Assembly (NCBI GenBank): GCA_040882355.1
Contig: JBBEBM010000018.1
Span: 1-36,841, forward strand
Reading direction: 5' to 3'
DNA: 36,841 nt
Source: Dehalococcoidia bacterium
Lineage (GTDB): Bacteria; Chloroflexota; Dehalococcoidia; DSTF01; RBG-16-68-14
Shown here: piece by piece, positions 758 through 25,305 of the stretch
How the letters are laid out: each line of letters starts with the position of its first letter
Position numbering within the stretch: position 1 is the first letter of the stretch
Made by a program: the position numbers and the translations under genes
The notes under the pieces: model-generated
What the model was told of the DNA's origin: nothing
Seen by the model: the letters and a program-made list of their open reading frames with translations, nothing else
Database searches by the model: none

Positions 758-3700
758 GTGCTAGGTGGCAGACCCAGGCTCGAGGCGTCCGTGCGCAGGT
801 GGTCGGTGTGGCTACGCATCAGCCTGCTGGCCTTCGTCGCGCTGGCGCTCTTCGTCGTCCCTTCGCTCGCTCGATCCCAGACTGGGCAGGGTACCAGCCC
901 GATCGCGATCACGATCACAGACAGCGGCTTCGTTCCGCGCCGCGTGATCGCCCTCCCAGGGCAGAGCATCCTCTTCACCAACGTATCTGGCCAGCCCCAG
1001 ACCGTCACTGCCGAGAGCGGCCTGTTCGACTCAGGTAGCCTGGCGACGGGCGCCGGCTTCAGCCTGGCGCTCTCCATCCCGGGACCACACCTCTACCACT
1101 CCAGCAGCAATCCCGCCTTCAAGGGCACGATCCTGCTCGCGCGCGCCGGGCTCGAGGGCCCAAACGCTGACCTCGCAATCGATCACATCCCCGACGTCGC
1201 CTTCCCGCCGCAGGGCGAGGACGAGGTTGACATTCACCCGCGCCTCGCCACGCTCACATCCCGCACGGACATCATCGTCGGCTTTACGTCGACAGCCACG
1301 GTCGGCGACGCGAACGACGCCCTCGCCGATGCCGGCGTCATCGTGGTAGGCGGACTGCCGGATCTGGGCATGGTGCTCGTCCAGGCGCCAGACACGCCCG
1401 ACTTTTCCGGCCTGGATGCCGCGCTCGGGGTGCTGCAGGCGCATCCGGCCGTCGAGTTCGCCGCCCCGGACCTCCAAACGGAGACGACGGCGCTGCCCCA
1501 AATCGCCGAGAGCGCCGTCGAGACCTTCGCGGGCCAGCCGTGGACATGGTCGACGGTCGCGGCCGGGACGGGCGGCAACTGGGGGCTGGAGGCGTCGCGG
1601 TTCCCGCAGGCGTGGAACCTGCTGGAGGCGGTCGAGCGCAAGAACAACGACATCCGCACAGGCATCGTCGACGGCGGCTTCCAGGCGCACACCGACCTGA
1701 CCAACCTCCAGATCGAGACGCTCTGTCGGACCGTGGCGCTGGTCTCCTCGATCTGTACTGTCACCCAGGCGAGCGACCATGGCAACCACGTGGCGGGTAC
1801 GATCGGCGCCGTCTACGACGATCCTGCGCCAGCGGAACCCGGGCGCTCGTTGGGCGTCAGCGGCGCGAATCCCGTCGCGAAGATGCATGGCGTGACCAAC
1901 AAGCGCACGGAGGGCGTCATCGCGAACATGTTCGCGCGCGAGCTGGAGGTCTGGGAGCTGCTGCTGGACGCTGCGGAGTCCGGAGCCATCCCGAACCTGC
2001 GTGTCGTCAACTTCAGCATGGCTTTCTCGACGGGCAACGGCGACACCTGCCTTGATGACGATGACGGAGACGGCGCGGGATGCGAAGGAGCGAACACGGG
2101 CGGGGCGGCCGACAGCTGCTCCGTGCTTGGTACTACGCCGGACTACGATCCAGCCTTGCACTCGATCGACTGCAACGGCGGCGAGTTCAACGATAAGGCC
2201 GGCTGGTGGGCGGCCCACCCTACCGCCGACTGCGGGCCTGGCGATAGCGACGATGGTTTCGGTGTTCAGGTCTGTACGCCTAACAATGAGGACGGCTGGC
2301 TGAACACCATCGCCAACCTCGGTCGGGCGCACCGCAAAGTGGCTGAGCGCGCGTCCGGTCTCAACGTCATCCTCGTGCCGGGAGCGGGCAACGAGAGCAC
2401 CAGCTTCTGTTCTGCCGCCGCCCACAGTTGCCCCTCGCCCACGATCATCAACTCATCCAGCACGCAGGCCTTCGCGTGGGCCTCCAACCACTGGGTGTCG
2501 CCACTGGATAACCCGATCGTCGTGGTGGAGGCGATCACGAACGGCGCGGGCATCATGTCCCGGGCGCCCTTCTCTAACGTGCGAGGGCCTGTCCTGCCGG
2601 GCTGCACCCCGGCCCAGTGCCTCTACATCTCCGCACCCGGCTTCAACATTCTCAGCGACGTGCTCGGGAACGGATACGGCGTCATGTCCGGCACTTCCAT
2701 GGCGGCGCCTCACGTCACCGGCCTGATCAGCTACCTGCTCGCGTATGACCCGTCACTCACCATCCCGCAAGTCAAGGAGAAGCTGCGGACGTGGGTGAAG
2801 GCCGACACCTGGGCTGGCGCTTCGTTTCGGATCGATGCCTTCGCGACGCTGCTCTCGACGGCGGGCGCGGCCAGGGACATGGTCGACGTGAGCGACCCGT
2901 CGAAGGACGGCAATCGACGCGTGATTCTCGGACCGAACGGCGCGGAGACCGGCGCCGACACGACGCTCAGCTCGCTACCGAACCAGCAGTCCGAGCCCGA
3001 CGGCAAGATCGACATGCGCGACTTCCGCCGCTTCCGCGACGCCTGGCTCCAGACGTGCGCGATCCTGCCAGGCAACGACGCGCTCTGCCCGGAGGCCTTC
3101 GAGATCGCTCTCAACGGCGCCGAAGACCACCCGAAGAAGGACCTCAACTTCGACGGCTGCGTCTACTTGGGCGGCGATCCGAACGGGTGCATCACCCAGG
3201 AGTTGATCCAGCCTCGCTTCGACTTCAACGGCGACGGTCGGGTGCGCAGGGGCGGCGGCGCGGAGCTCCCGATCAAGTCCAACGGTACGCCAGCAGCGAA
3301 CCAAGGCGAAGCGGCCACGATGACCGACCTCGAAGTACTCCTTAGTCAGTGGGAGCCGGCCGCGGCCCTCACCGAGGGTTGGACTCCCGCCGCCATCAAC
3401 CTCCACGACATGATGCGCTCCGGCGACCTGGAGGTCCACGCGGAGGAATTCTTCAACCAGGGCGCGACCGAGGTCACGATCCAAGTCAAGCGCACCGATA
3501 CCGCCGCCTACCTGCCCGAGCGCACGCTCAGCAGCAACGACCCCGACGGTTTCATCGTCATCACCGCGCCAGCCACCGAGCTCGAGATCACCGCGTCTGC
3601 TTCGCTCGACAGCCAGACGGTGGAGACTGCGCCCGTAGACGTCACCCTTCAGCCGGGCGAGGACCGGCGAGTCGAGCTCTGCACATCCTGTCTCGTCCTC

Positions 3701-6700
3701 AAGGCCGAACCGCCACACGTTCCCGCCAACGGAGCGGCGACCTTGATCATTGCCGCCACGCTGAAGAACGACGCCGGCGCCGTCGACGGGGTGCCCGTCA
3801 CGTTCTCGATCGAGCCATCGGGGCCTGGCCACGCAACGCTGAATCCGACCAGCGGCCCGACCGACGCCACTGGTGCGGCGATGACCACCTTCACAGCCGG
3901 CACGATCCCGGCCACCTACACCATCACCGCGCTCGCCGACCTGGGCGGAGGCCAGCAGATCGAGGCGACCCTGGAGATCGAAGCGCTGCCGGAACTCACG
4001 ATCGTCTACACGTGGCGCCAACAGATGGTCAACTGGACGGAGGCGGGGTCGACTCGGTGGACGGGCAACCCGCCGGCGATGCCGGATTGTGAGGTGCCGG
4101 GCGTCGTGCCGTACTGCATCGACAGCTTCGAAATCTCGGCGGACTTCAGCCAGCCCTCTCCCATCCTGGAGCGCGATGGCGTTCTGTCGGGTCCCGGGTT
4201 CGCGCTGGCTCTGGACGAGAACGTAGGTCCCGGCGTTGGGCACTCTGTCAGCTCGTGGACGATCAGCGATCCCGATGGCTCCAACGTGCGTTTCGGCTCC
4301 GAGGAAGCGACGTGGCAGGTGACGGACCCCGACCCTTATCAGGACTACGCCCTGCCCTCCACGGTGTTCGTCGACGACGAGCCGGGAGGGCTCACACTTC
4401 ACGGCTTGGAGGACGTCGCCGAGCTTGGGTACACGCACTCCCTCATCAGCACGCTCACCAGCGGGAACGAAGACCCGATCGAGTTGCATGCGACGCGCGG
4501 CGACTTCCTGCTGATCCCGCGCGGGGATGGCTCCGCCCTCCGCTTTGCCGTCGATGTGTCCGAGCCGCTCTCCTTCGAGCGCCAGCCGGACGGCACCTTC
4601 GCGCCCTATCAGTTCTGCGGCAGGTTCGAGAGCGACCTGACGACGGACTTCGGCTATCGCGTCGCCGCGCCAGCCGAGTGGATCCCGGGCGCCACCGACC
4701 TGACCCGCAAGACCAGCTACCAGCCTAACGACCGCCCTATGCCCGTCGGCCCCGGCAACATGATCGTCCAATATTCCTTCGCTGCTGCCGCCGGGTACGC
4801 CGGTCAGCCGCTCTCGGTCAGCCTGCCGGACTGCTCCATCAACAACCCACCAGACGCGGACTTCGACTACAGTCCTGCGAACCTCAAAGAGGGCCGCGTC
4901 GTTCTCTTCACCGACACGTCCAGCGACCCCGAACACAACATCGATACTTGGGAATGGGACTTCGGTGACGGCGCCACCGACTCGGAACCCGATCCATACC
5001 ACCTCTACAAGGACAACGGGAGTTACGTCGTCACACTCACAGTCACGGATACCGGGGGCGAGACGGATACCGTCAGCGAGACCGTCTCCGTCGCCAACCT
5101 GCCGCCGGAGCCGGAGCTGGACGACGCCGTGGGGCAGCAAGGCCAGCCGCTGGTCATGCGTATGCGGCTCTTCGACCCGGGCATGGCAGACCGCGCCGAT
5201 CTCGACTTCGACCTGCGCTTCACCGGCTCGAGCACGGCGCTCGCCCAGGGGACGCTGGCCGCTGGTGCGTACAATGTCAGCTTTCCCCAGGGCCTACCCG
5301 TGGGTGTGCACTCGGTCACCTTGACCGCGACCGACAAGGACGGCGCCAGCGCTTCCGATGAGGCGACGGTGGTCTCGCTCGGCGAGCCTCCGCCGCCACC
5401 GCCGCCTCCCCCTCCGCCTACGCCCACGTGCGACCTCAACGTAGAGCTCGACGCCGTTGAGCAGGCCTTCCTCGACCTGCTCAACGAGTACCGGGCGCAG
5501 AACGGCCTGGCGCCCGTCGGCGTCTCGCCAACGCTGACCCAAGCGGCCGAGCGGCACTCAGACGACATGGTGGTGAACAACTTCTTTGGCCAGCTCGGGA
5601 ACCCAGGCTTCGACCCGCACACCGGCTCGGATGGCAGCAGTTCGCTCGACCGCGCGCGAGATGCCGGCTACCCGGGTGACGTCGTGAGCGAGAACCTGGC
5701 GATGGATCTCGAATCTGCGCCGGACGCCCTCCTTGGCTGGAAGACCTCCACGGCCGGCCACAACGAGAACATGCTCAACCCAGACTGGAAAGCCGTCGGG
5801 ATCTCACGAGAGGAGGGCGGCGTCTGGTACTGGGCGACGAGCTACGGCGATGTGCTCGACTGCCCGCCTCCCGGTAGCTCGTCCCTCCAATCCTTCTCCG
5901 CGCCCTCCTCCGGGCACTTGCCGACGAGTCTAGACCCGGCGCCGGCTGGAGGCGGCGAGCCCGTTATCCTCGAACCGGCCGCCCCAGACCGGCCCGGCCC
6001 GGCCGATCAGCCGCCCGCTCTCATCGGCTCGACCCAGACCATCACGCTGAGCCGTGGCACGACCGGCGCATTGGGGCCGGCTGCTCAGTCGCAGCCGTCA
6101 TCGGGCCCGGTGACCCAGTCACAGCCGTCGTCCTACCCGCCGGTGCCGGCGTTCGTGATCTCTAACGCCGCGCCGGCCGCCGGCCTCCCGGTCACCTTCA
6201 CCAACCGCTCGCGCGACGCGAACGGCAGCCTGATCGGGGCGACGCTCGACCTCGACGATGGGTCTCAGGCAGTGGCGCTGGGCCCGGGAGCGACCCTCGC
6301 GCACACATACACGGTGGGTGGCGACTTCGATGTCACTGTGACCGCCACGGACGCGAAGTCGCACCAGCTCACGGTCACGCGCCGCGTCACCGTGATGGCG
6401 GCCACCCTTACCCGCACCCCGACGCCGACACGCACAAGCACCCGCACGCCCACCATCACCCCGACTGCCACCTCCACCCCAAAGCCCGAAAAGTTCACGG
6501 TGAACAGCACCGCAGACGCTGAGGACCTGAACATAGGCGACGGCATCTGCGCGAGCTCGACCGGCGCCTGCACGCTGCGCGCCGCCATTCAGGAGGCGAA
6601 CGCGACTCCCCTGACCGCCGACACTATCAACCTGTCCGCAGGCACCTACACGCTGGAAGGCGGTAGCAGCGACGCCGACGAGGAGTTCGCCGAGGAAGGC

Positions 6701-8296
6701 GACCTGGACATTCGCGCGAGTCTGACGATCAATGGCGCTGGTTCCGGCAGCACCATCATTCAGGGAGGGACGCAGCCCTTGTGGGTGGACCGGATTTTCC
6801 AGATTCACTTCGGCGAGGTCGAGATGAGCGGCGTCACCATCCGCTACGGCTTCGCCCGGAACGACAATAACCAGCACGTCCCAGGCGGCGGCATCTGGCA
6901 CTGGGCCGGGCAGCTTACGCTGGACGACGTCGTCATCGACCAGAACCGCGCGGCCACGGGCGGAGGGATCTACAGCGTCGGGGGCGGACTGACTCTGACC
7001 GACAGCACAATCAGCGATAACGCGGTTGGCGACAGCATTGTCGTGCCCGCAAGCCAGGAGAGCGTTGGTGGAGGCGTCTACGTCGGTGGGTCCGACTCCG
7101 TGACGATCGCGAATAGCGTCATCACGGGGAACTTCGGTATTGGCGGCGGGATTGGAAACGACGGAACGGTCGACATTACTCATACGACCATCACGATGAA
7201 CCGGTCGACATCGTTCTTCTCGCCCTGCCGCGGCGGAGGCGTCATGAACCGCGGCACGGTCACCGCGACGCGAACAACGATCAGCTTCAACTCGGTGGGC
7301 AATCCAAGCGGCTGCGAGAGTGACGGCGGCGGCATCTGGAACAACGGGACGTTTACCCTGGCCAACAGCACGCTGAGCGGCAATGGTGAGCTTGGGCCAG
7401 GTGACGTGGGAGGCGGTGTATTCAACGCCGGCGGCTCGTTCTCCGCGCAACATTCGACGATCACGGGCAACAAAACGGGTGTCTACATTACCGCGGGTAC
7501 CGTCAGCTTGAAGAGCACCATCCTCGGTGCTAACTTGTTCAGTGACTGCCTGGGCTTCGTGGGCGCCAACAGCGTCAATTCTCAGGGTCACAACCTGATC
7601 CACGACACCAGCGGTTGCACGATCACGGGCGACACGTCGGGCAATGTCACCGGCGTGAGCCCTAACCTCGGCCCGCTCGGCGACAACGGCGGGCCGACGC
7701 TCACGCACGCGCTGCTCCCTGGCAGCGCCGCCATCGATGCCGGCAGCGCCTCCTGCCCGCCGCCGTCCACGGATCAGCGTGGCCACCCGCGACCCGAGGG
7801 CCCGGCGTGCGACATTGGCGCCTTCGAGGCCTCTCCGGATGACTTCTCTACGCCTACGCCTTCGCCTACCCGTACGCCCACACCCGTCGCGCCCGACTCC
7901 GACAACGACGGCTGCACCGATAGCCAGGAGAACGGCTCGAACGCGCAGAACGGCGGCCGGCGCGACCCTGATAACTTCTGGGACTTCTTCGACGTGCCGA
8001 CAGGGTCGCCGCTTCAGCGCGATCACGCCGTGACCGCAGGCGACCTTGCCGCCGTCGTCTCGCGCTTCGGCTCGAACGACGCCACACCGGGCGCGTTCAA
8101 TCGCAGCAGCGACCCGCGTTCGACGCCGAACCCCGCCGTCCAGCCATCAGGCGCGCGCCCGAACTACCACCCGGCATACGATCGCGGCGGAAGCGCTCCC
8201 GGCGGCGACCCCTGGGACCTGCTTCCCCCGGACGGGTCGATCACGGCGGGGGACATCGCGTCAGCGGTGGTGCAGTTCGGCCATAGCTGCGTCTAG
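758..8296 (+). CDS. Giant secreted/surface S8 (subtilisin-like) serine protease: signal peptide, cupredoxin-like, S8, Ig/Big_1, PKD x2, CAP, CSLREA/beta-helix, choice-of-anchor-Q-like and flexitail-like C-terminus
   Basis: Catalytic triad motifs GIVDGG, HGNHVAGTI, GTSMAAPHV; oxyanion GAGNE; PKD WEWDFGDG; CAP LLNEYRAQNGL/HSDDM/GHNENML; CTLRAAIQEAN; DQRG…CDIGAFE; DSDNDGCTD…NFWDFFDVP. Confidence 0.92.
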   Translation: MLGGRPRLEASVRRWSVWLRISLLAFVALALFVVPSLARSQTGQGTSPIAITITDSGFVPRRVIALPGQSILFTNVSGQPQTVTAESGLFDSGSLATGAGFSLALSIPGPHLYHSSSNPAFKGTILLARAGLEGPNADLAIDHIPDVAFPPQGEDEVDIHPRLATLTSRTDIIVGFTSTATVGDANDALADAGVIVVGGLPDLGMVLVQAPDTPDFSGLDAALGVLQAHPAVEFAAPDLQTETTALPQIAESAVETFAGQPWTWSTVAAGTGGNWGLEASRFPQAWNLLEAVERKNNDIRTGIVDGGFQAHTDLTNLQIETLCRTVALVSSICTVTQASDHGNHVAGTIGAVYDDPAPAEPGRSLGVSGANPVAKMHGVTNKRTEGVIANMFARELEVWELLLDAAESGAIPNLRVVNFSMAFSTGNGDTCLDDDDGDGAGCEGANTGGAADSCSVLGTTPDYDPALHSIDCNGGEFNDKAGWWAAHPTADCGPGDSDDGFGVQVCTPNNEDGWLNTIANLGRAHRKVAERASGLNVILVPGAGNESTSFCSAAAHSCPSPTIINSSSTQAFAWASNHWVSPLDNPIVVVEAITNGAGIMSRAPFSNVRGPVLPGCTPAQCLYISAPGFNILSDVLGNGYGVMSGTSMAAPHVTGLISYLLAYDPSLTIPQVKEKLRTWVKADTWAGASFRIDAFATLLSTAGAARDMVDVSDPSKDGNRRVILGPNGAETGADTTLSSLPNQQSEPDGKIDMRDFRRFRDAWLQTCAILPGNDALCPEAFEIALNGAEDHPKKDLNFDGCVYLGGDPNGCITQELIQPRFDFNGDGRVRRGGGAELPIKSNGTPAANQGEAATMTDLEVLLSQWEPAAALTEGWTPAAINLHDMMRSGDLEVHAEEFFNQGATEVTIQVKRTDTAAYLPERTLSSNDPDGFIVITAPATELEITASASLDSQTVETAPVDVTLQPGEDRRVELCTSCLVLKAEPPHVPANGAATLIIAATLKNDAGAVDGVPVTFSIEPSGPGHATLNPTSGPTDATGAAMTTFTAGTIPATYTITALADLGGGQQIEATLEIEALPELTIVYTWRQQMVNWTEAGSTRWTGNPPAMPDCEVPGVVPYCIDSFEISADFSQPSPILERDGVLSGPGFALALDENVGPGVGHSVSSWTISDPDGSNVRFGSEEATWQVTDPDPYQDYALPSTVFVDDEPGGLTLHGLEDVAELGYTHSLISTLTSGNEDPIELHATRGDFLLIPRGDGSALRFAVDVSEPLSFERQPDGTFAPYQFCGRFESDLTTDFGYRVAAPAEWIPGATDLTRKTSYQPNDRPMPVGPGNMIVQYSFAAAAGYAGQPLSVSLPDCSINNPPDADFDYSPANLKEGRVVLFTDTSSDPEHNIDTWEWDFGDGATDSEPDPYHLYKDNGSYVVTLTVTDTGGETDTVSETVSVANLPPEPELDDAVGQQGQPLVMRMRLFDPGMADRADLDFDLRFTGSSTALAQGTLAAGAYNVSFPQGLPVGVHSVTLTATDKDGASASDEATVVSLGEPPPPPPPPPPPTPTCDLNVELDAVEQAFLDLLNEYRAQNGLAPVGVSPTLTQAAERHSDDMVVNNFFGQLGNPGFDPHTGSDGSSSLDRARDAGYPGDVVSENLAMDLESAPDALLGWKTSTAGHNENMLNPDWKAVGISREEGGVWYWATSYGDVLDCPPPGSSSLQSFSAPSSGHLPTSLDPAPAGGGEPVILEPAAPDRPGPADQPPALIGSTQTITLSRGTTGALGPAAQSQPSSGPVTQSQPSSYPPVPAFVISNAAPAAGLPVTFTNRSRDANGSLIGATLDLDDGSQAVALGPGATLAHTYTVGGDFDVTVTATDAKSHQLTVTRRVTVMAATLTRTPTPTRTSTRTPTITPTATSTPKPEKFTVNSTADAEDLNIGDGICASSTGACTLRAAIQEANATPLTADTINLSAGTYTLEGGSSDADEEFAEEGDLDIRASLTINGAGSGSTIIQGGTQPLWVDRIFQIHFGEVEMSGVTIRYGFARNDNNQHVPGGGIWHWAGQLTLDDVVIDQNRAATGGGIYSVGGGLTLTDSTISDNAVGDSIVVPASQESVGGGVYVGGSDSVTIANSVITGNFGIGGGIGNDGTVDITHTTITMNRSTSFFSPCRGGGVMNRGTVTATRTTISFNSVGNPSGCESDGGGIWNNGTFTLANSTLSGNGELGPGDVGGGVFNAGGSFSAQHSTITGNKTGVYITAGTVSLKSTILGANLFSDCLGFVGANSVNSQGHNLIHDTSGCTITGDTSGNVTGVSPNLGPLGDNGGPTLTHALLPGSAAIDAGSASCPPPSTDQRGHPRPEGPACDIGAFEASPDDFSTPTPSPTRTPTPVAPDSDNDGCTDSQENGSNAQNGGRRDPDNFWDFFDVPTGSPLQRDHAVTAGDLAAVVSRFGSNDATPGAFNRSSDPRSTPNPAVQPSGARPNYHPAYDRGGSAPGGDPWDLLPPDGSITAGDIASAVVQFGHSCV

Positions 8297-19518: not shown

Positions 19519-19905
19519 GGGAACCTCCTCTCTCCAGGCGTTACTCGCCTACTCGCCATGCTAGCCGCCGGAAGGTTACGCGATGACAAACATAGCGGGC
19601 TCGTGGGTTGCAGTGACGTTGCACGCGGGTCGCGGTGCGCCGGACTCTATGTAGCGCTCCTATGTGCAAGAGGGTCACGCGGCTTTCTCCACCGAAACAC
19701 TGGCTGATTCCGGTTGGCACTCCTGCCAGAGACGCCACACAGGCGCGCGCGACGTAACGCATGAGGGCTCGTCGCGCCTCCCGGCGGCTCTTTCCGTCGG
19801 AGATGCCGGCCGCGCTAAGACTTACGCCTGCGTCTCGCGGCTTCCCGCGCGTTCGGGCGGAGCCATCCATACGTGGGGATAGATCTGGCGAGGGCGAGCT
19901 ACGGA

Positions 19906-22900
19906 TTAAGCGGTCGCTAGCAATGCCGAAACTAGTTCGTCGATCTCCTGAGACAGGCCATCCTCGGCCAACGCCGCTCGGATGCGCCCGCGAACGCGAG
20001 TGAAATACTCGCCGGGCCGCAACTGAACGCGCTCGGCAGCGCGCTCGGCCTTCGCTCCTGCGCTCGCGAGCAGCCCATGCAGCCGATTCGCAGGATCGAA
20101 CCTTGGGATGGGAAGTGAGAGCATCACCTTGTCAAAGTCCCGCGCACCCCACTGACCTCGGCTCTGCAGATGCTCGACGCGCGACCGCGCAGTTTCGCTA
20201 TTTAATATCGCTGCAAGATACCGGGCCTCCTCCAAGGTCAGGACCGGGGCCCAATAGAGCTTGTGGTCTACGACGGCTCTATCGTCTTGAAGGACGGCAG
20301 CCGCCGGGAGCGTGCCAGCTTTGGAGAACAAGACCCTTACGGGCGCGCAGGGAAACTGAGCGGACAATTGGCCATAGAAATCCAGCTCCTCCGCCAAAGT
20401 ACGAGTACCCCTTCCATGGGACTCCCACAACTGCTCGGCATTTCTCAACCACCGTCGGAGGTGCGGGTAGCCAGCTTGGCGTGCCTGATCAGAGTCCATG
20501 AGTTGCCGGGTTTCGCTCCCCCACGGAATGACTCCCAGTACCGGCGCGAGAAGTCTGAAAGGCGCGAGAGACTCACCCAGGAAGATTGGGCGAAGGAACT
20601 CCCGTTCCACAGCCCCTCGGAGTGCAGGCAGTTCCGCCCAGGGCCTCTTTTCTTGTCGGCTCCGACGGCTCTCGACGCGTGGGGCCGCCGCGTCTTGACC
20701 AAGGATGCCTGTCCGCGTGTCCTGAACCGTCCAGATCATTCGCGGGATTACGATTGCTCCCTGCCGGAACAGACCTGCATACGTGGATGTTGTGCTCTCG
20801 ACCCGTGCTTCTCGCCACGGCTGCTCATGCCACTCCAGCGCCTCATCCGCCTCACCTGTCGTGGCGTCGCGCCTAGGCAGAGTGCCAGAAGCCGCCTGGA
20901 CCTGGGCAGGAAGGCGTTGAGACGAAAGGTCCCCTGCAGCCAACTCTGGCTCGTTCTCGGCAAAGAGGACACATGAGGGAACGGGAAAGAGCGGCTGGAC
21001 ATCGTCTGAAAATGCCCATGCTTCGACGAAGCGAACTGACGCGTGGATGTTGACGACTCGCCCTCGCTGCCTGGTTGCGAAGATGCCACGCCTAAACGCC
21101 TCGAACTGGCGTCGGCTCATCGTGGCGTACGGCATCACGAATGCAATGGAGCCTGATGGCTTTACATAGAGCTCCGCGCATCGAGCGAAGAAGTACGCGC
21201 ACAAGTCTTGATGCGGGGTCACACCTCGTCCGCCGACCCAAACTCCGATTCTTTGACATTCTGTCCTGAATGGCTCCTGAACAGCAGCAGACATGAAGTT
21301 GAACGCCAGCCACGGAGGATTGCCGACAACTACGTCCGCGCGCTGTTCGAGTTGGGAAAGCCAAGCTGGACGCGAGAGATTGCGTGCCACGAAGCCCCAG
21401 ATATGGTCGCGCCCTTCTTCGTGCAGCGTACAGAGGTGCTGATACGTTCCCACCAGGACTTGGCTGGTGTGATCGTCAAGACCCTGTTGGCGCTGCAGCC
21501 ACCGCGTCAGAGTGTCCGGTGCCTCCCCAGCGGCACTGAGCTCGAGCATGCGCTCGATGACCTCGTCGAACAGCGAGGGATCTCGCGCTACTGTTACGGG
21601 GAACTCAAGCAACGGCCCTCCGTCTGGCACTTCGATGAGTACTTCGCGGTCGGCCAGGAAGCCACGAGTGTTCCACTGCAGGGAATCACCCAAGTAGACC
21701 GGAATGGTCAACTGGGGCCGGTCTTGGAGCCGTTGTTCACCCAGCGCAAGCAGATAGGTCACCCGAGCGATTTGAACGGCTAACGGGTGAACGTCTATAC
21801 CAAACACCTGACTTCCACAGAGGGCCAAAGCTTCGTGATTCGAAGTTCCAGCCTCCGCGGCGGCTGCGAGGAACTTGCGGACTGCGTGAAATAGAAAAGT
21901 GCCGGAACCACACGCGGGATCGAGCACACGCTGATGAAGCGGGTCGCTTATGACGCGCTCACACATTCTCGCGGCGAGCCAGTCCGGAGTATAGTATTCA
22001 CCCAAGTAGTGGCGTTGCTCGGGATCGATGAGCGACTCGTAGAGACCCTTCAGCACGTCCGTCTCCACGTCCCGGAGCCGAAATCTTGCGGCCTGGATCG
22101 AGATTCTCCGCACAAGTGACGCCCCGCTATCCGCCGCAAGGAGCCAATCAAAGAAATCAGACTCCACCACGCCTGAAATTCCCGCCTGGCTGAAAGGAAG
22201 TCCGGATAGCAGCTCCGCCGGCTCTGGCATGGCGATCCCCAGCGCGTGCACGGCGATGGTCTTGGCAACAACACTGAGGTAGGTATGTTGGAAGAAGAGA
22301 GCATCGCTATTCACCGGCGAGCCGTAGACACGCTCCAGCAAACGAGCCCAGAGCTCTCGCTTTAGGCGAACATCGGGATGATTCTGGACTTCCTCCCACA
22401 GTCCTCCAAGTTCCTCAAAGGCAACGTGCCAGGCGAGACTTTCGCGGCCGAGCTGTCGACGAACCGTTTCTGGATCGGGAGGAAGATCAACGGAAATCAC
22501 AACCGCGCCATCAAGCCACGCAAGGATATCTCTTGGGGAATCGGGAGAAGCAACATGTGACGGGAGTCGCCGAAGGTGACCGTCGCGCAGTTCGTACGGT
22601 ACGAACGTCGCGCCATCAGTTGCAATGCCCACGAAGTGCTCGCCGGTCTGAGCCTCCCTTTCGGCGAGATAGCGCGTCAGCTCTTGCTCCGCGTCGCTCA
22701 ACTCGCGCCGGAGGTCAGACTTGAACTCAAGGACCGTCCGTCCAAGGAGGGCGTCAAGGCGACCGTGCACCTCAGGCAAAGGGCGTTCGAATTGGATGTC
22801 AGCGCTGCTGGCTCCGAGGCCGCCCACGAGCAAGCGATGAATGAGTGCTCGAACCTTCTCGTGTCCGGGCCTGGTGACCAGCTCGACAACGATCTCCTGC

Positions 22901-22923
22901 AGCTCCGCGATATCGATCGTCAT
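19906..22923 (-). CDS. Fused restriction endonuclease-N6 adenine methyltransferase (type IIG-like)
   Basis: N-terminal PD-(D/E)xK-like RLDALLGRTVLEFK; LGEYYTP; motif I DPACGSGTF; motif IV GNPPW; C-terminal TRD-like region. Confidence 0.9.
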   Translation of the reverse strand: MTIDIAELQEIVVELVTRPGHEKVRALIHRLLVGGLGASSADIQFERPLPEVHGRLDALLGRTVLEFKSDLRRELSDAEQELTRYLAEREAQTGEHFVGIATDGATFVPYELRDGHLRRLPSHVASPDSPRDILAWLDGAVVISVDLPPDPETVRRQLGRESLAWHVAFEELGGLWEEVQNHPDVRLKRELWARLLERVYGSPVNSDALFFQHTYLSVVAKTIAVHALGIAMPEPAELLSGLPFSQAGISGVVESDFFDWLLAADSGASLVRRISIQAARFRLRDVETDVLKGLYESLIDPEQRHYLGEYYTPDWLAARMCERVISDPLHQRVLDPACGSGTFLFHAVRKFLAAAAEAGTSNHEALALCGSQVFGIDVHPLAVQIARVTYLLALGEQRLQDRPQLTIPVYLGDSLQWNTRGFLADREVLIEVPDGGPLLEFPVTVARDPSLFDEVIERMLELSAAGEAPDTLTRWLQRQQGLDDHTSQVLVGTYQHLCTLHEEGRDHIWGFVARNLSRPAWLSQLEQRADVVVGNPPWLAFNFMSAAVQEPFRTECQRIGVWVGGRGVTPHQDLCAYFFARCAELYVKPSGSIAFVMPYATMSRRQFEAFRRGIFATRQRGRVVNIHASVRFVEAWAFSDDVQPLFPVPSCVLFAENEPELAAGDLSSQRLPAQVQAASGTLPRRDATTGEADEALEWHEQPWREARVESTTSTYAGLFRQGAIVIPRMIWTVQDTRTGILGQDAAAPRVESRRSRQEKRPWAELPALRGAVEREFLRPIFLGESLAPFRLLAPVLGVIPWGSETRQLMDSDQARQAGYPHLRRWLRNAEQLWESHGRGTRTLAEELDFYGQLSAQFPCAPVRVLFSKAGTLPAAAVLQDDRAVVDHKLYWAPVLTLEEARYLAAILNSETARSRVEHLQSRGQWGARDFDKVMLSLPIPRFDPANRLHGLLASAGAKAERAAERVQLRPGEYFTRVRGRIRAALAEDGLSQEIDELVSALLATA

Positions 22924-23038: not shown

Positions 23039-23341
23039 CTAAGCGGCGCGCGGTCGCCGCGACCCTGGTGGGCGCCCCCGCTTCCGCCGCACCACCTTCG
23101 CGTAGACCTTGTTGCCCGCGTCCCAGTGCATCCACGTGGACCCGATCTGCTTGCCCGCCCGTGTGATCTGCGCCTTCACGCCCTGCGCCGTCCGCCCGCG
23201 CGGCACCTCGACCTCCAGCACGCTGGCCGGTGGCAGTTTCGCCATCGCCGCCCTCAGCGCCTCCAGCTCCTCGTTCACCTTGCCATCGGCTGCGGGCTGC
23301 GGTACCTCGCTCTCCTTGCGGGCGGTGATCTTCATCGGCAT
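23039..23341 (-). CDS. Small basic hypothetical protein with C-terminal AT-hook
   Basis: GGAG RBS, -10-like TAGAAT (23375-23380, minus); RRKRGRPP motif. Confidence 0.7.
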   Translation of the reverse strand: MPMKITARKESEVPQPAADGKVNEELEALRAAMAKLPPASVLEVEVPRGRTAQGVKAQITRAGKQIGSTWMHWDAGNKVYAKVVRRKRGRPPGSRRPRAA

Positions 23342-23502
23342 GAGTTAGGTCTCCCTCCGTGTCGACGCTGGTGCATTCTATCCGTCGCCGATGGGCGAGC
23401 GCCAACGGGCGCGTGAGGGTACACTTGCCTTGGGTCCGCCCGGCCATTGTTTGCGTGGTACCCGTTCCAGAACTGCCGGGCGATGCTTGGTGTTCGTGGG
23501 AA

Positions 23503-23559
23503 GGCATGGTGCGGCCTGGTTTGGCAAGGTTAGGCAAGGCAAGGTCTGGTATGGCAGGC
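23503..23559 (+). repeat. GGY-NN tandem pentamer array
   Basis: GGCAT GGTGC GGCCT GGTTT GGCAA GGTTA GGCAA GGCAA GGTCT GGTAT GGCA GGC. Confidence 0.92.
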
Positions 23560-23572
23560 AAAGGAAAGGCGA

Positions 23573-23608
23573 AGGAAGCGCCGCTCTGATATTGGAGCGG
23601 CGCTTCCT
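23573..23608. terminator. 14-bp perfect hairpin
   Basis: AGGAAGCGCCGCTC / GAGCGGCGCTTCCT. Confidence 0.75.
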
Positions 23609-23651
23609 CATTCCAATTCCGCTTTCCGGAGCCTTCCTCCAGTTAGACCGG

Positions 23652-24362
23652 TCAGTTGTTGGCCTGCTTCAGCGTCGGCCTCTGCCGCTCCAGCCAGCCA
23701 ATGAAGCGCGGAGCGTCAAGGAACCTCGGTAGCCGGGCACTCCGCTGAACGTAGCCGTCGTTGACGGACAGGCCGCCCCACTCATCCAGGAGGTTTCTCC
23801 GCACCCGGTACGCCCGATCACGGCGCTCGCCGATCGGCAGGCACCGCTCCAGCCTACCCGACACGCCGGGCTGGCCGACCACGATCAGGTCTTCAACGCC
23901 CGGCGCGAGCACGCGGCGGGCGTGCGCGTTCATGTCCCGATTGCGAGCGGGCACGTCCCTGGCAAGGACGAACTCCTCCACCACAAGGAGACCGATGATC
24001 GCGTACACCAGTTCGCGGGCGCCGTTGACATCTCTGAGACCCGCGTAGAAGACCACGAGATCGCCACGGCCCAGCCGTTCGTGGAGCTGCTTCGCTCGCT
24101 GTCCGACGTCCCTGTAGGTCAGGTGCGAGAAGTCCGGGTCAAGGTGCATCCGTCGCGACCGCAGGTGCCCAGGCAGCTCGACGGCCAGGTCCGCCAAGGC
24201 CGGAATGAGCGCCGTGTACCGCTTCTCCAAGCCTGCGTGGAGCCGGCTGGCCTCAGGAATCGGTACGTAGACGAACTTGCGCGACCGGCTGTCGACCGGG
24301 CCGTTCCATGAGCCGCCAACCGCAGTAAGGTCGGCTGCGACGCGGACGAGGAGTGCGTTCAA
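23652..24362 (-). CDS. Nmad3-like (nucleotide modification-associated domain 3) protein
   Basis: LLVRVAAD…FVYVPIPE…HLDPDF…LTY…GDLVVFYAGL pattern; TTG 24362 after GGAGG. Confidence 0.7.
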   Translation of the reverse strand: MNALLVRVAADLTAVGGSWNGPVDSRSRKFVYVPIPEASRLHAGLEKRYTALIPALADLAVELPGHLRSRRMHLDPDFSHLTYRDVGQRAKQLHERLGRGDLVVFYAGLRDVNGARELVYAIIGLLVVEEFVLARDVPARNRDMNAHARRVLAPGVEDLIVVGQPGVSGRLERCLPIGERRDRAYRVRRNLLDEWGGLSVNDGYVQRSARLPRFLDAPRFIGWLERQRPTLKQANN

Positions 24363-24432
24363 GGAGCCTTGACCTCCCCGCCCACCTATCGGATATATGG
24401 CGATGCCCAATTCTAGAAGGAGGAACCCCACC

Positions 24433-24549
24433 GTGCAACGCTACCTCACAGACTACGACGACACCGCCTCCGGCTGGGAGCGCGCCCTCTACGCCTTCCT
24501 CGTCGAGAAGCAGCGGCGCTCGGGCTCCGAGCGCACCACCCAGGCTTGA
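24433..24549 (+). pseudogene. Truncated N-terminus of a tyrosine recombinase/integrase
   Basis: AAGGAGG + GTG; MQRYLTDYDDTASGWERALYAFLVEKQRRSGSERTTQA* resembles integrase N-terminal S-x-R-T motif; premature stop after 38 aa. Confidence 0.55.
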
Positions 24550-25139: not shown

Positions 25140-25178
25140 TTAGGAAACCGTCGCTCTATCCTACTGAGCTACGGGGGC
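25140..25178 (-). pseudogene. 5' half of tRNA-Arg(CCT), truncated after the anticodon loop; probable att junction
   Basis: GCCCCCGTAGCTCAGTAGGATAGAGCGACGGTTTCCTAA followed by non-tRNA sequence; no T-arm or acceptor 3' strand. Confidence 0.85.
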
Positions 25179-25229: not shown

Positions 25230-25305
25230 TGGTGGAGATAGGGGGATTCGAACCCCCGACCTCTGCGATGCGAACGCAGCGCTCTCCCAATTGAGCTATA
25301 TCCCC
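25230..25305 (-). tRNA. tRNA-Ala(CGC)
   Basis: Full cloverleaf, loop TTCGCAT, GTTCGAAT T-loop, CCA end. Confidence 0.97.

Follow-up and report, generated by a model that had tools for sequence, protein, structure and literature searches.

What purpose could a lone array of GGY triplets serve in the chromosome of a Dehalococcoidia bacterium? The question is raised by a tract in the window, that is, the whole stretch of 36,841 nucleotides that was analysed. On the plus strand at 23503-23555, 11 GGY triplets stand in an exact 5-nt register, the dinucleotides (NN) between them read AT GC CT TT AA TA AA AA CT AT, with A or T at 16 of the 20 positions, and the array ends in GGCAGGC at 23553-23559. 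All of these features had been described in an initial annotation made from the sequence and were read again at 23503-23559. Nowhere else in the 82-contig, 3.33-Mb genome, on either strand, is there a run of at least six GGY units; five runs have 5 units, and the chance expectation for 11-unit runs is about 5e-8. It lies within a lower-GC island of about 5 kb (GC content is 0.59-0.62 at 20-23 kb), between a gene for a type IIG restriction-modification enzyme and an Nmad3 gene. The features of the locus are the following:

19906-22923, minus strand: type IIG restriction-modification enzyme of 1005 aa, island cargo (PADLOC REase_MTase_IIG, E 1.9e-75; Pfam N6_Mtase/Eco57I)
23039-23341, minus strand: basic protein of 100 aa, from a Chloroflexota family without a name; its gene is divergently oriented relative to the guide
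23420-23425, plus strand: candidate promoter, a -10-like TACACT; the 100 nt upstream of the array contain no other TAnnnT
23503-23547, plus strand: guide region of the putative solo vrRNA, nine GGY-NN units (AT GC CT TT AA TA AA AA CT)
23548-23559, plus strand: end motif GGY-AT-GGC-AG-GC, common to guide L002 of the related genome G044 and typical of the ends of Vipr-locus arrays in the clade
23573-23608, plus strand: 14-bp perfect hairpin (sequence and folding)
23652-24431, minus strand: Nmad3 (nucleotide-modification-associated domain 3) protein, island cargo, converging on the guide (Pfam PF18754, E 2e-22)
24433-24549, plus strand: remnant of a tyrosine recombinase N-terminus, 38 codons (69% identity over 32 aa to the intact recombinase beside guide L022 of G044)
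25140-25178, minus strand: 5' half of a tRNA-Arg(CCT), ending after the anticodon loop (sequence; blastn to another tRNA-Arg)
25230-25305, minus strand: tRNA-Ala(CGC), right border of the island (tRNA call)

Arrays of this form are known from VIPR. A vrRNA consists of 9-16 GGY/NN units, which are read against DNA with one base skipped per unit (10.64898/2026.04.26.720920), and according to the vrRNA criteria of the VIPR preprints it is a small RNA of about 100 nt that co-purifies with Vipr. The window array contains 10-11 NN of seven different kinds, which is within the definition of 9-16 pentamers, and it shares with VIPR the number of units, the GGY scaffold, the 1-nt skip and a target in a coding sequence with the skips at wobble positions (10.64898/2026.04.26.720920). 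Judged by its sequence, the array is almost certainly a vrRNA, and the suggestion of the initial annotation that it is a VIPR-type GGY/NN guide was borne out computationally.

In contrast to a complete VIPR system, neither vipr nor vap is present at the locus or was found in the genome. We used a Vipr profile (A1) built from two proteins of the same order, their relatives and four phage proteins, which recovers the SUSP1 Vipr with E 6.7e-48 and positive controls with E 1e-78 to 1e-85. Over six frames of the window's genome, which is 93.9% complete, its best match has an E value of 0.83, although very divergent types could escape such a search, and tblastn with two vap proteins of the order reached a best E of 0.33. 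As no Vipr was found in the genome, we regard the array as a solo guide, a term introduced in October 2026 for arrays that lack a Vipr on their own contig or at a distance of up to 20 kb (10.64898/2026.10.15.759431, as far as its text was available). This agrees with the initial annotation, which had seen no RAMP-like gene nearby and had considered a trans-acting guide. Among 93 genomes from the order, two (G009 and G060) are matched by profile A1, and since both Vipr genes sit in the head modules of prophages, a Vipr donor exists for the order. In two prophages (L053:9103-10397 and L054:8917-9972), vipr, vap and a vrRNA lie between the genes for the head maturation protease and the major capsid protein, and the vap gene matches phrog_15946. 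Small complete genome G188, from the same class, carries one array in three copies (C1:247207, 269565 and 816977; L179, L193), and both of the copies that were fetched follow a vipr gene. In G555, an array that also appears to be solo (L180, G555:C1:462975) ends in AT-AG like the window's and follows a 356-aa gene; no target within three mismatches was found for it in its own genome.

What does the window guide read? A scan of the genome with skips of 0-3 nt gave a sole outlier, which lies at skip 1 at G000:C32:6371-6399 on the minus strand and matches 18 of 20 positions; the next best value is 15, reached by four sites, and apart from the self-match the skips 0, 2 and 3 stay at 14-15 matches, the null level. 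None of 900 base-shuffled and none of 900 unit-shuffled 10-unit guides reached 18. The guide without its tail unit, nine units long, matches 17/18, a value reached by none of 1,500 unit-shuffled guides. The gapped match that the initial annotation had anticipated was therefore found with a skip of one nucleotide, above shuffled controls. The site covers codons 567-575/576 (IALVKYKKL[V]) of a gene for a 932-aa vitamin B12-dependent class II ribonucleotide reductase, a PRK06556-type NrdJ encoded downstream of nrdR; the match is in frame and every skipped base is a wobble position. Because the guide has the sense of the nrdJ mRNA, it could pair only with the template DNA strand and not with the mRNA. 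The A+T-rich NN correspond to codon positions 1-2 of a Lys/Tyr-rich motif in a GC-rich host gene, and the AT-rich target that had been deduced from them did not hold.

Natural guides can reach such scores by chance: in this genome, 17/18 is also attained by two of 79 nine-unit windows, which stem from one of 30 natural arrays. The case for nrdJ therefore rests on recurrence. A match of 17/18 was seen between G000:C59:30021 and the guide at L065:3730-3830, whose source, a complete VIPR phage, is close to the prophage of G009. It falls on the opposite strand, at the 3' terminus of a frame predicted to be acetyltransferase-like, and is probably due to chance.

Recurrence was seen in two further places. 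An unbiased blastn search with the region over 60 relatives revealed two arrays in G044, an unpublished genome from another family of the order, and these match the nrdJ of their own genome at 16/16 canonical positions (L002) and at 18/18 (L022). Guide L002 lies between a tRNA-Leu and the integrase of an element with a primase, a small terminase and a toxin-antitoxin-like pair, whereas guide L022 is found near genes for an intact recombinase, a type IIG restriction-modification enzyme and PDC-S11. Like the window's genome, G044 contains a single site within three mismatches of the consensus guide, and profile A1 has no match in G044. A metagenome scan with the six-unit core yielded four loci (L151-L154). 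For the near-identical L151 and L152, the match to nrdJ extends on both sides (L-A-L-V-K-Y-K-K-L-V-G) and the guide carries an L variant that is found in a real nrdJ allele; for L153 and L154, there is no extension. Upstream of the L151 guide is a gene for a tyrosine recombinase of 189 aa, its end is formed by a hairpin with a run of U, and its neighbours include PD-T7-4-like and PDC-M03B-like genes; no Vipr was seen in the 6.9 kb that were fetched. In L151 (3981-4105) and L152, a 20-nt block of four units encoding K-L-V-G is repeated three times in one locus and four times in the other, which suggests that guide length changes by slippage.

With the window array, this makes four distinct nrdJ-type guides, two of them from the one unpublished genome. 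Each of them adjoins a tyrosine recombinase and defence-type genes, and their flanks are unrelated. Between the four guides, the Y of the scaffold varies in eight of nine columns and the NN in two of 18 (p = 1.7e-4), a column test that is partly circular because L151 was found with a pattern that fixes 11 of the 18 NN letters. Compared pairwise over eight core units, Y differs at 3-7 of eight positions and NN at 0-1 of 16, and in pairs of the window guide with G044 guides alone the values are 4/8 versus 1/16. The initial annotation had proposed to see whether NN varies while GGY is fixed: NN does vary within the array, yet across the homologous guides it is NN that is nearly fixed and Y that varies.

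This pattern also bears on the idea that the tract is a microsatellite, a protein-coding repeat or an antisense small RNA with no relation to VIPR, which we consider extremely improbable. Simple GGYNN microsatellites do occur in the order (G026, G082), but here the NN differ within the array and stay fixed between lineages while Y drifts, as the initial annotation had already argued against slippage on the basis of the varying NN. ORFs can be drawn over the tract; however, when a conserved coding use was looked for, two overlapping ORFs that were scanned gave no Pfam hit, and a 5-nt period cannot hold a reading frame. The decoded NN string is itself an in-frame protein motif, and a guide in the same sense as the nrdJ mRNA could not act as its antisense RNA.

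The nrdJ motif pattern occurs once each in 62 of 93 genomes of the order, four of which were checked and lie in a reductase gene, and the reversed control gave one match. In 41 of the 62 alleles, the codons for V and Y are those that the consensus guide spells. Taken by sequence comparison, the nrdJ motif is very probably the selected target. Elsewhere, blastn of the locus against 50,697 phage records gave only scaffold matches with E 0.2-0.6, and no plasmid targets or homologues were found. Seven loci in the viral collection match the 18-letter target pattern. One of them is nrdJ, and the remaining six, frames in AT-rich DNA that are either short or non-coding, were treated as chance.

Guides of this type are rare rather than widespread, as they are present in two of 93 genomes of the order and in one of 401 genomes of a phylum sample, the one being the window's genome. 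A search of the genome collection returned two loci (L063, L064) and no new guide sequence, and the guide patterns gave 0, 1, 1 and 1 matches in viral contigs, the three being Vipr-linked and without extension of the motif. Among 30 loci fetched with ±1.5 kb for the recombinase of the L022 type, an array is present only at L022 itself, and none of four distant viral relatives of the L151 recombinase has one. Because the 29 other L022-type loci and the four viral relatives lack an array, the guide appears to be an occasional cargo of recombinase elements and not a fixed part of them. Among arrays at Vipr loci, none of 65 matches the nrdJ site at more than 12 of 16 positions, as expected if the guide and Vipr were harmful together.

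The homologous guides also help to delimit the RNA. AG closes 47 of 107 Vipr-locus arrays, compared with a frequency of 2.5% at inner positions, and in 30 of the 47 it is preceded by AA, AT or AC. Since so many arrays end in this way, the guide proper probably has nine units and the last AT plus AG form a constant end motif, which would place the last of the ten NN listed in the initial annotation outside the guide. The end motif of the window guide resembles the staggered arrays of Vipr loci in the order, and we infer that it marks a staggered-array boundary; such arrays are described in the legend of fig. S18 of the VIPR study (10.64898/2026.04.26.720920). The GGCAG end is present in the window guide and L002 but absent from L022 and L151. 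Downstream, the 14-bp closing hairpin noted before is present at 23573-23608, and the region 23556-23615 folds with z = -6.1. It was not called by a terminator scan, and it is probably the RNA's 3' end and/or the terminator of the converging Nmad3 gene. A hairpin follows all four nrdJ-type guides, the hairpin sequences being unrelated. An end composed of a GGCAG motif and a simple hairpin would differ from the pseudoknot tail described for SUSP1 guides (10.64898/2026.10.15.759431).

On the 5' side, the TACACT hexamer and both arms of the stem that had been annotated are present in the sequence, but the stem does not form in predicted folds and is absent from the homologous guides, and the 5' part folds no better than shuffled sequences (z = -1.7). 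TACACT is also found 12 nt before guide L002. In the three homologous guides, a TAnnnT hexamer lies 12-28 nt before the array, compared with 83 nt in the window, and the guide length of about 180 nt proposed earlier is unsupported. A sigma-70 scan called no full promoter for the guide, and Rfam matches in the window are limited to tRNAs.

The distant hexamer might be a sign that a once-functional nrdJ guide has become a decaying relic in this genome, as might the truncated recombinase, the broken tRNA-Arg and the one NN mismatch: at a position where each of the 62 alleles listed has GT or AT, the window guide carries TT, and this mismatch may reflect decay. Nevertheless, we consider a relic very improbable. 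The array has kept its 11 GGY intact, its hairpin is perfect, and the frames for the restriction-modification enzyme and Nmad3 are open. The match of 90-94% exceeds the 80% cut-off for natural targets and is close to the mean of 89.2% of a validated guide, as given in the VIPR preprints. Furthermore, four DNA sequencing runs from one study, one of which may itself be the source, cover the island in pieces, and no variant is listed at the array.

The surroundings of the array may point to a mobile origin. The broken tRNA-Arg(CCT) is a probable integration scar: tRNA-Arg-like contigs of other organisms diverge at 25140, and no intact Arg(CCT) is among the tRNAs called in the assembly. A search for a second att site or att repeats of the island found none, and for this reason we use the term decayed integrative island as an inference. 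The locus is best explained as the gene of a solo vrRNA that belongs to the defence cargo of an integrative island, which would be decayed and linked to tRNA genes. The 100-aa protein encoded at 23039-23341 ends in RGRP, which we take to be an AT-hook-like motif, and 24 of 93 order genomes gave matches to it, including 21/21 of one family. It was considered as a vap or partner protein and rejected, given that this genome encodes two paralogues at other sites and contains just the one array, and that an array lies within about 1.5 kb at none of 14 homologous loci. Close to the left edge of the island, a non-coding segment at 19669-19790 has an 80%-identical paralogue at C4:72091-72171 and no Rfam match. 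Purine-rich GGA-NN pentamer runs (GGACA/GGAAA/GGATA) were seen at G000:C15:10574-10630 and 2193-2224 (-), C24:25984-26020 (+) and C74:2072-2103 (+); they lie shortly after the ends of genes, three have REP-like palindromes with a CTAC/GTAG end next to them, and the runs could be simple repeats or a non-canonical type of array.

How could a guide without its protein be of use to the cell? We propose that a short RNA would be transcribed from the locus, ending at the hairpin, and that it would stay inert as long as the cell is free of Vipr, none of which was found within the limits of the assembly. Upon infection by a VIPR phage, the Vipr of the invader would polymerise on the GGY units. Such polymerisation on GGY is reported for SUSP1 VIPR in the VIPR preprints, which also describe the binding of GGY by Vipr and its silencing of transcription, with targets on either strand and inside coding sequences (10.64898/2026.04.26.720920; 10.64898/2026.04.26.720927), and solo guides are reported to load on phage Vipr in trans (10.64898/2026.10.15.759431). 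The NN pairs, whose match to the gene is described above, would then bind the nrdJ template strand at the conserved EPD-IALVKYKKL-VGGG codons with the wobble bases skipped. Since the skipped bases are wobble positions, one tiny RNA would serve many hosts. A block of nrdJ transcription would lower the dNTP supply and could limit phages that lack a reductase of their own, and as a side effect Vipr would be diverted from the targets intended by the phage. We lean slightly towards such a tripwire, in which the nrdJ of the host would be silenced, and dNTPs limited, by a Vipr borrowed from the phage.

Several observations bear on whether this could work. The target lies mid-gene, at codon 567 of 932, and that a roadblock would silence nrdJ from so far inside is an assumption made by analogy with the CDS-internal targets in the preprints. 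The window's genome encodes a second class II reductase without the motif, about 3 kb from the first (G000:C32:1-2237 and 5299-8097), and no class I small subunit or class III enzyme was found in it; because of this second enzyme, silencing of nrdJ need not be lethal here. Counting against the proposal, reductase protein that is already present would outlast a block of transcription during a fast lytic cycle. The pair of reductases is also seen in G007 and G009, and G044 has one, the targeted nrdJ, which is the only reductase found there in a search that left out class III. None of five VIPR-positive virus records, four of them complete, encodes a reductase, so that these phages would depend on host dNTPs.

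One could also speculate that the selected target is the nrdJ of a phage, a reductase of the same subfamily, and that the solo guide turns the Vipr of a lytic or co-infecting phage on the viral gene, the host match being collateral since the motif is conserved. Two records in the whole viral collection, L155 and L156, match the 20-letter motif pattern; both encode host-type PRK06556 class II reductases with the exact motif, one beside a primase gene, these genes fit the guide no less well than the host gene does, and the D-L-A-L variant of L156 matches the L151 guide at 22/22 positions. Moreover, the published solo vrRNAs are described as mostly aimed at genes of phages or satellites (10.64898/2026.10.15.759431). 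However, these two viral records stand against 62 of 93 host genomes, the latter found with a looser pattern, no Vipr was seen in L155 or L156 (51% and 29% complete), the five VIPR-positive records lack a reductase, and binding to the host copy would occur regardless. We therefore consider a phage target unlikely.

Quite improbable, in our opinion, is a decoy or sink as in F5 satellites, which would draw Vipr from the element's own genes while silencing of nrdJ is incidental or tolerated. For E. coli satellites, solo vrRNAs are reported to redirect Vipr to host REP sites and thereby protect the satellite (10.64898/2026.10.15.759431); L021, which has an integrase, a primase and a small terminase, is clearly an integrated element and looks satellite- or prophage-like, and the window's host has a spare reductase. 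Yet the published decoy has more than 1,000 sites and a non-targeting solo guide served as a non-protective control (10.64898/2026.10.15.759431), whereas there is a single nrdJ site per genome here, so that the window guide is not of the REP-decoy type, and in G044 the only reductase found would be a costly place for a sink. On balance, that it is the host copy of nrdJ that matters, and not a phage copy or a mere decoy, seems to us somewhat better than an even bet. For the reading as a whole, namely that a tripwire guide without its protein has been retained time and again on unrelated integrative defence islands, aimed at the most conserved reductase codons of the host and of any phage copy, and would abort infection by dNTP starvation, we estimate a probability of about 0.45.

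The window guide resembles the solo vrRNAs of F5 satellites and of VIPR-null members of the SUSP1 family in being a GGY/NN array without vipr, probably on an integrative element, and it would share with them the wobble-aligned code with a 1-nt skip, the need for Vipr in trans and a target in the host chromosome (10.64898/2026.10.15.759431). The targets described in that preprint, all from Enterobacteriaceae, are multi-copy non-coding REP decoys, vipr, rival vrRNAs and satellites (10.64898/2026.10.15.759431). Here, by contrast, guides on unrelated elements in Chloroflexota all match a single-copy host gene for nucleotide metabolism, and they do so at one conserved motif. Also, the VIPR study reports no self-targeting guides at 80% or more on source contigs (10.64898/2026.04.26.720920), whereas the window guide targets its own genome, on a different contig. 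The terms ribonucleotide reductase and nrdJ have no occurrence in the VIPR preprint texts, a language-model survey and one supplement, although target tables may list such genes, and the text of the solo-vrRNA preprint (10.64898/2026.10.15.759431) does not contain ribonucleotide, nrd or abortive. Solo vrRNAs are thus already known; the new aspect is one aimed at a reductase, of which we found none in print.

In its proposed outcome, the starvation of phages for dNTPs, the guide is similar to the dNTP-depleting defences dGTPase (PMC13519002) and PUA-Cal-HAD (PMC12871103), as these are described in the parts of the literature available to us. These are host enzymes that destroy nucleotides, whereas here an RNA of about 100-180 nt would use a phage protein to block their synthesis; the window guide is not a member of this group and may work like it. 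With the RNA anti-CRISPRs (Racr, PMC10651486) and the CreTA/crlRNA guards (10.1101/2024.01.05.574328, 10.1101/2024.10.29.618823), the guide would have in common a lone guide-like RNA that reprograms the RAMP-type effector of another system, and the coupling of growth arrest to the state of this effector. Compared with them, the direction would be reversed, as an RNA on the side of the cell would capture a phage effector, and no CRISPR repeat or toxin gene is involved; harm would arise from the presence of the effector and not from its loss.

VIPR and solo vrRNAs were first described in 2026, and in the texts available to us the targets of solo guides are decoy repeats or rival mobile elements. 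If our reading is true, the nrdJ-type guides would represent a third use of solo guides, an RNA-only counter-defence that makes a phage effector toxic to the infection itself. It would also be relevant to the path that has been proposed to lead from inter-phage VIPR to host immunity, since on the cell side guides would be acquired before the protein, or without it.
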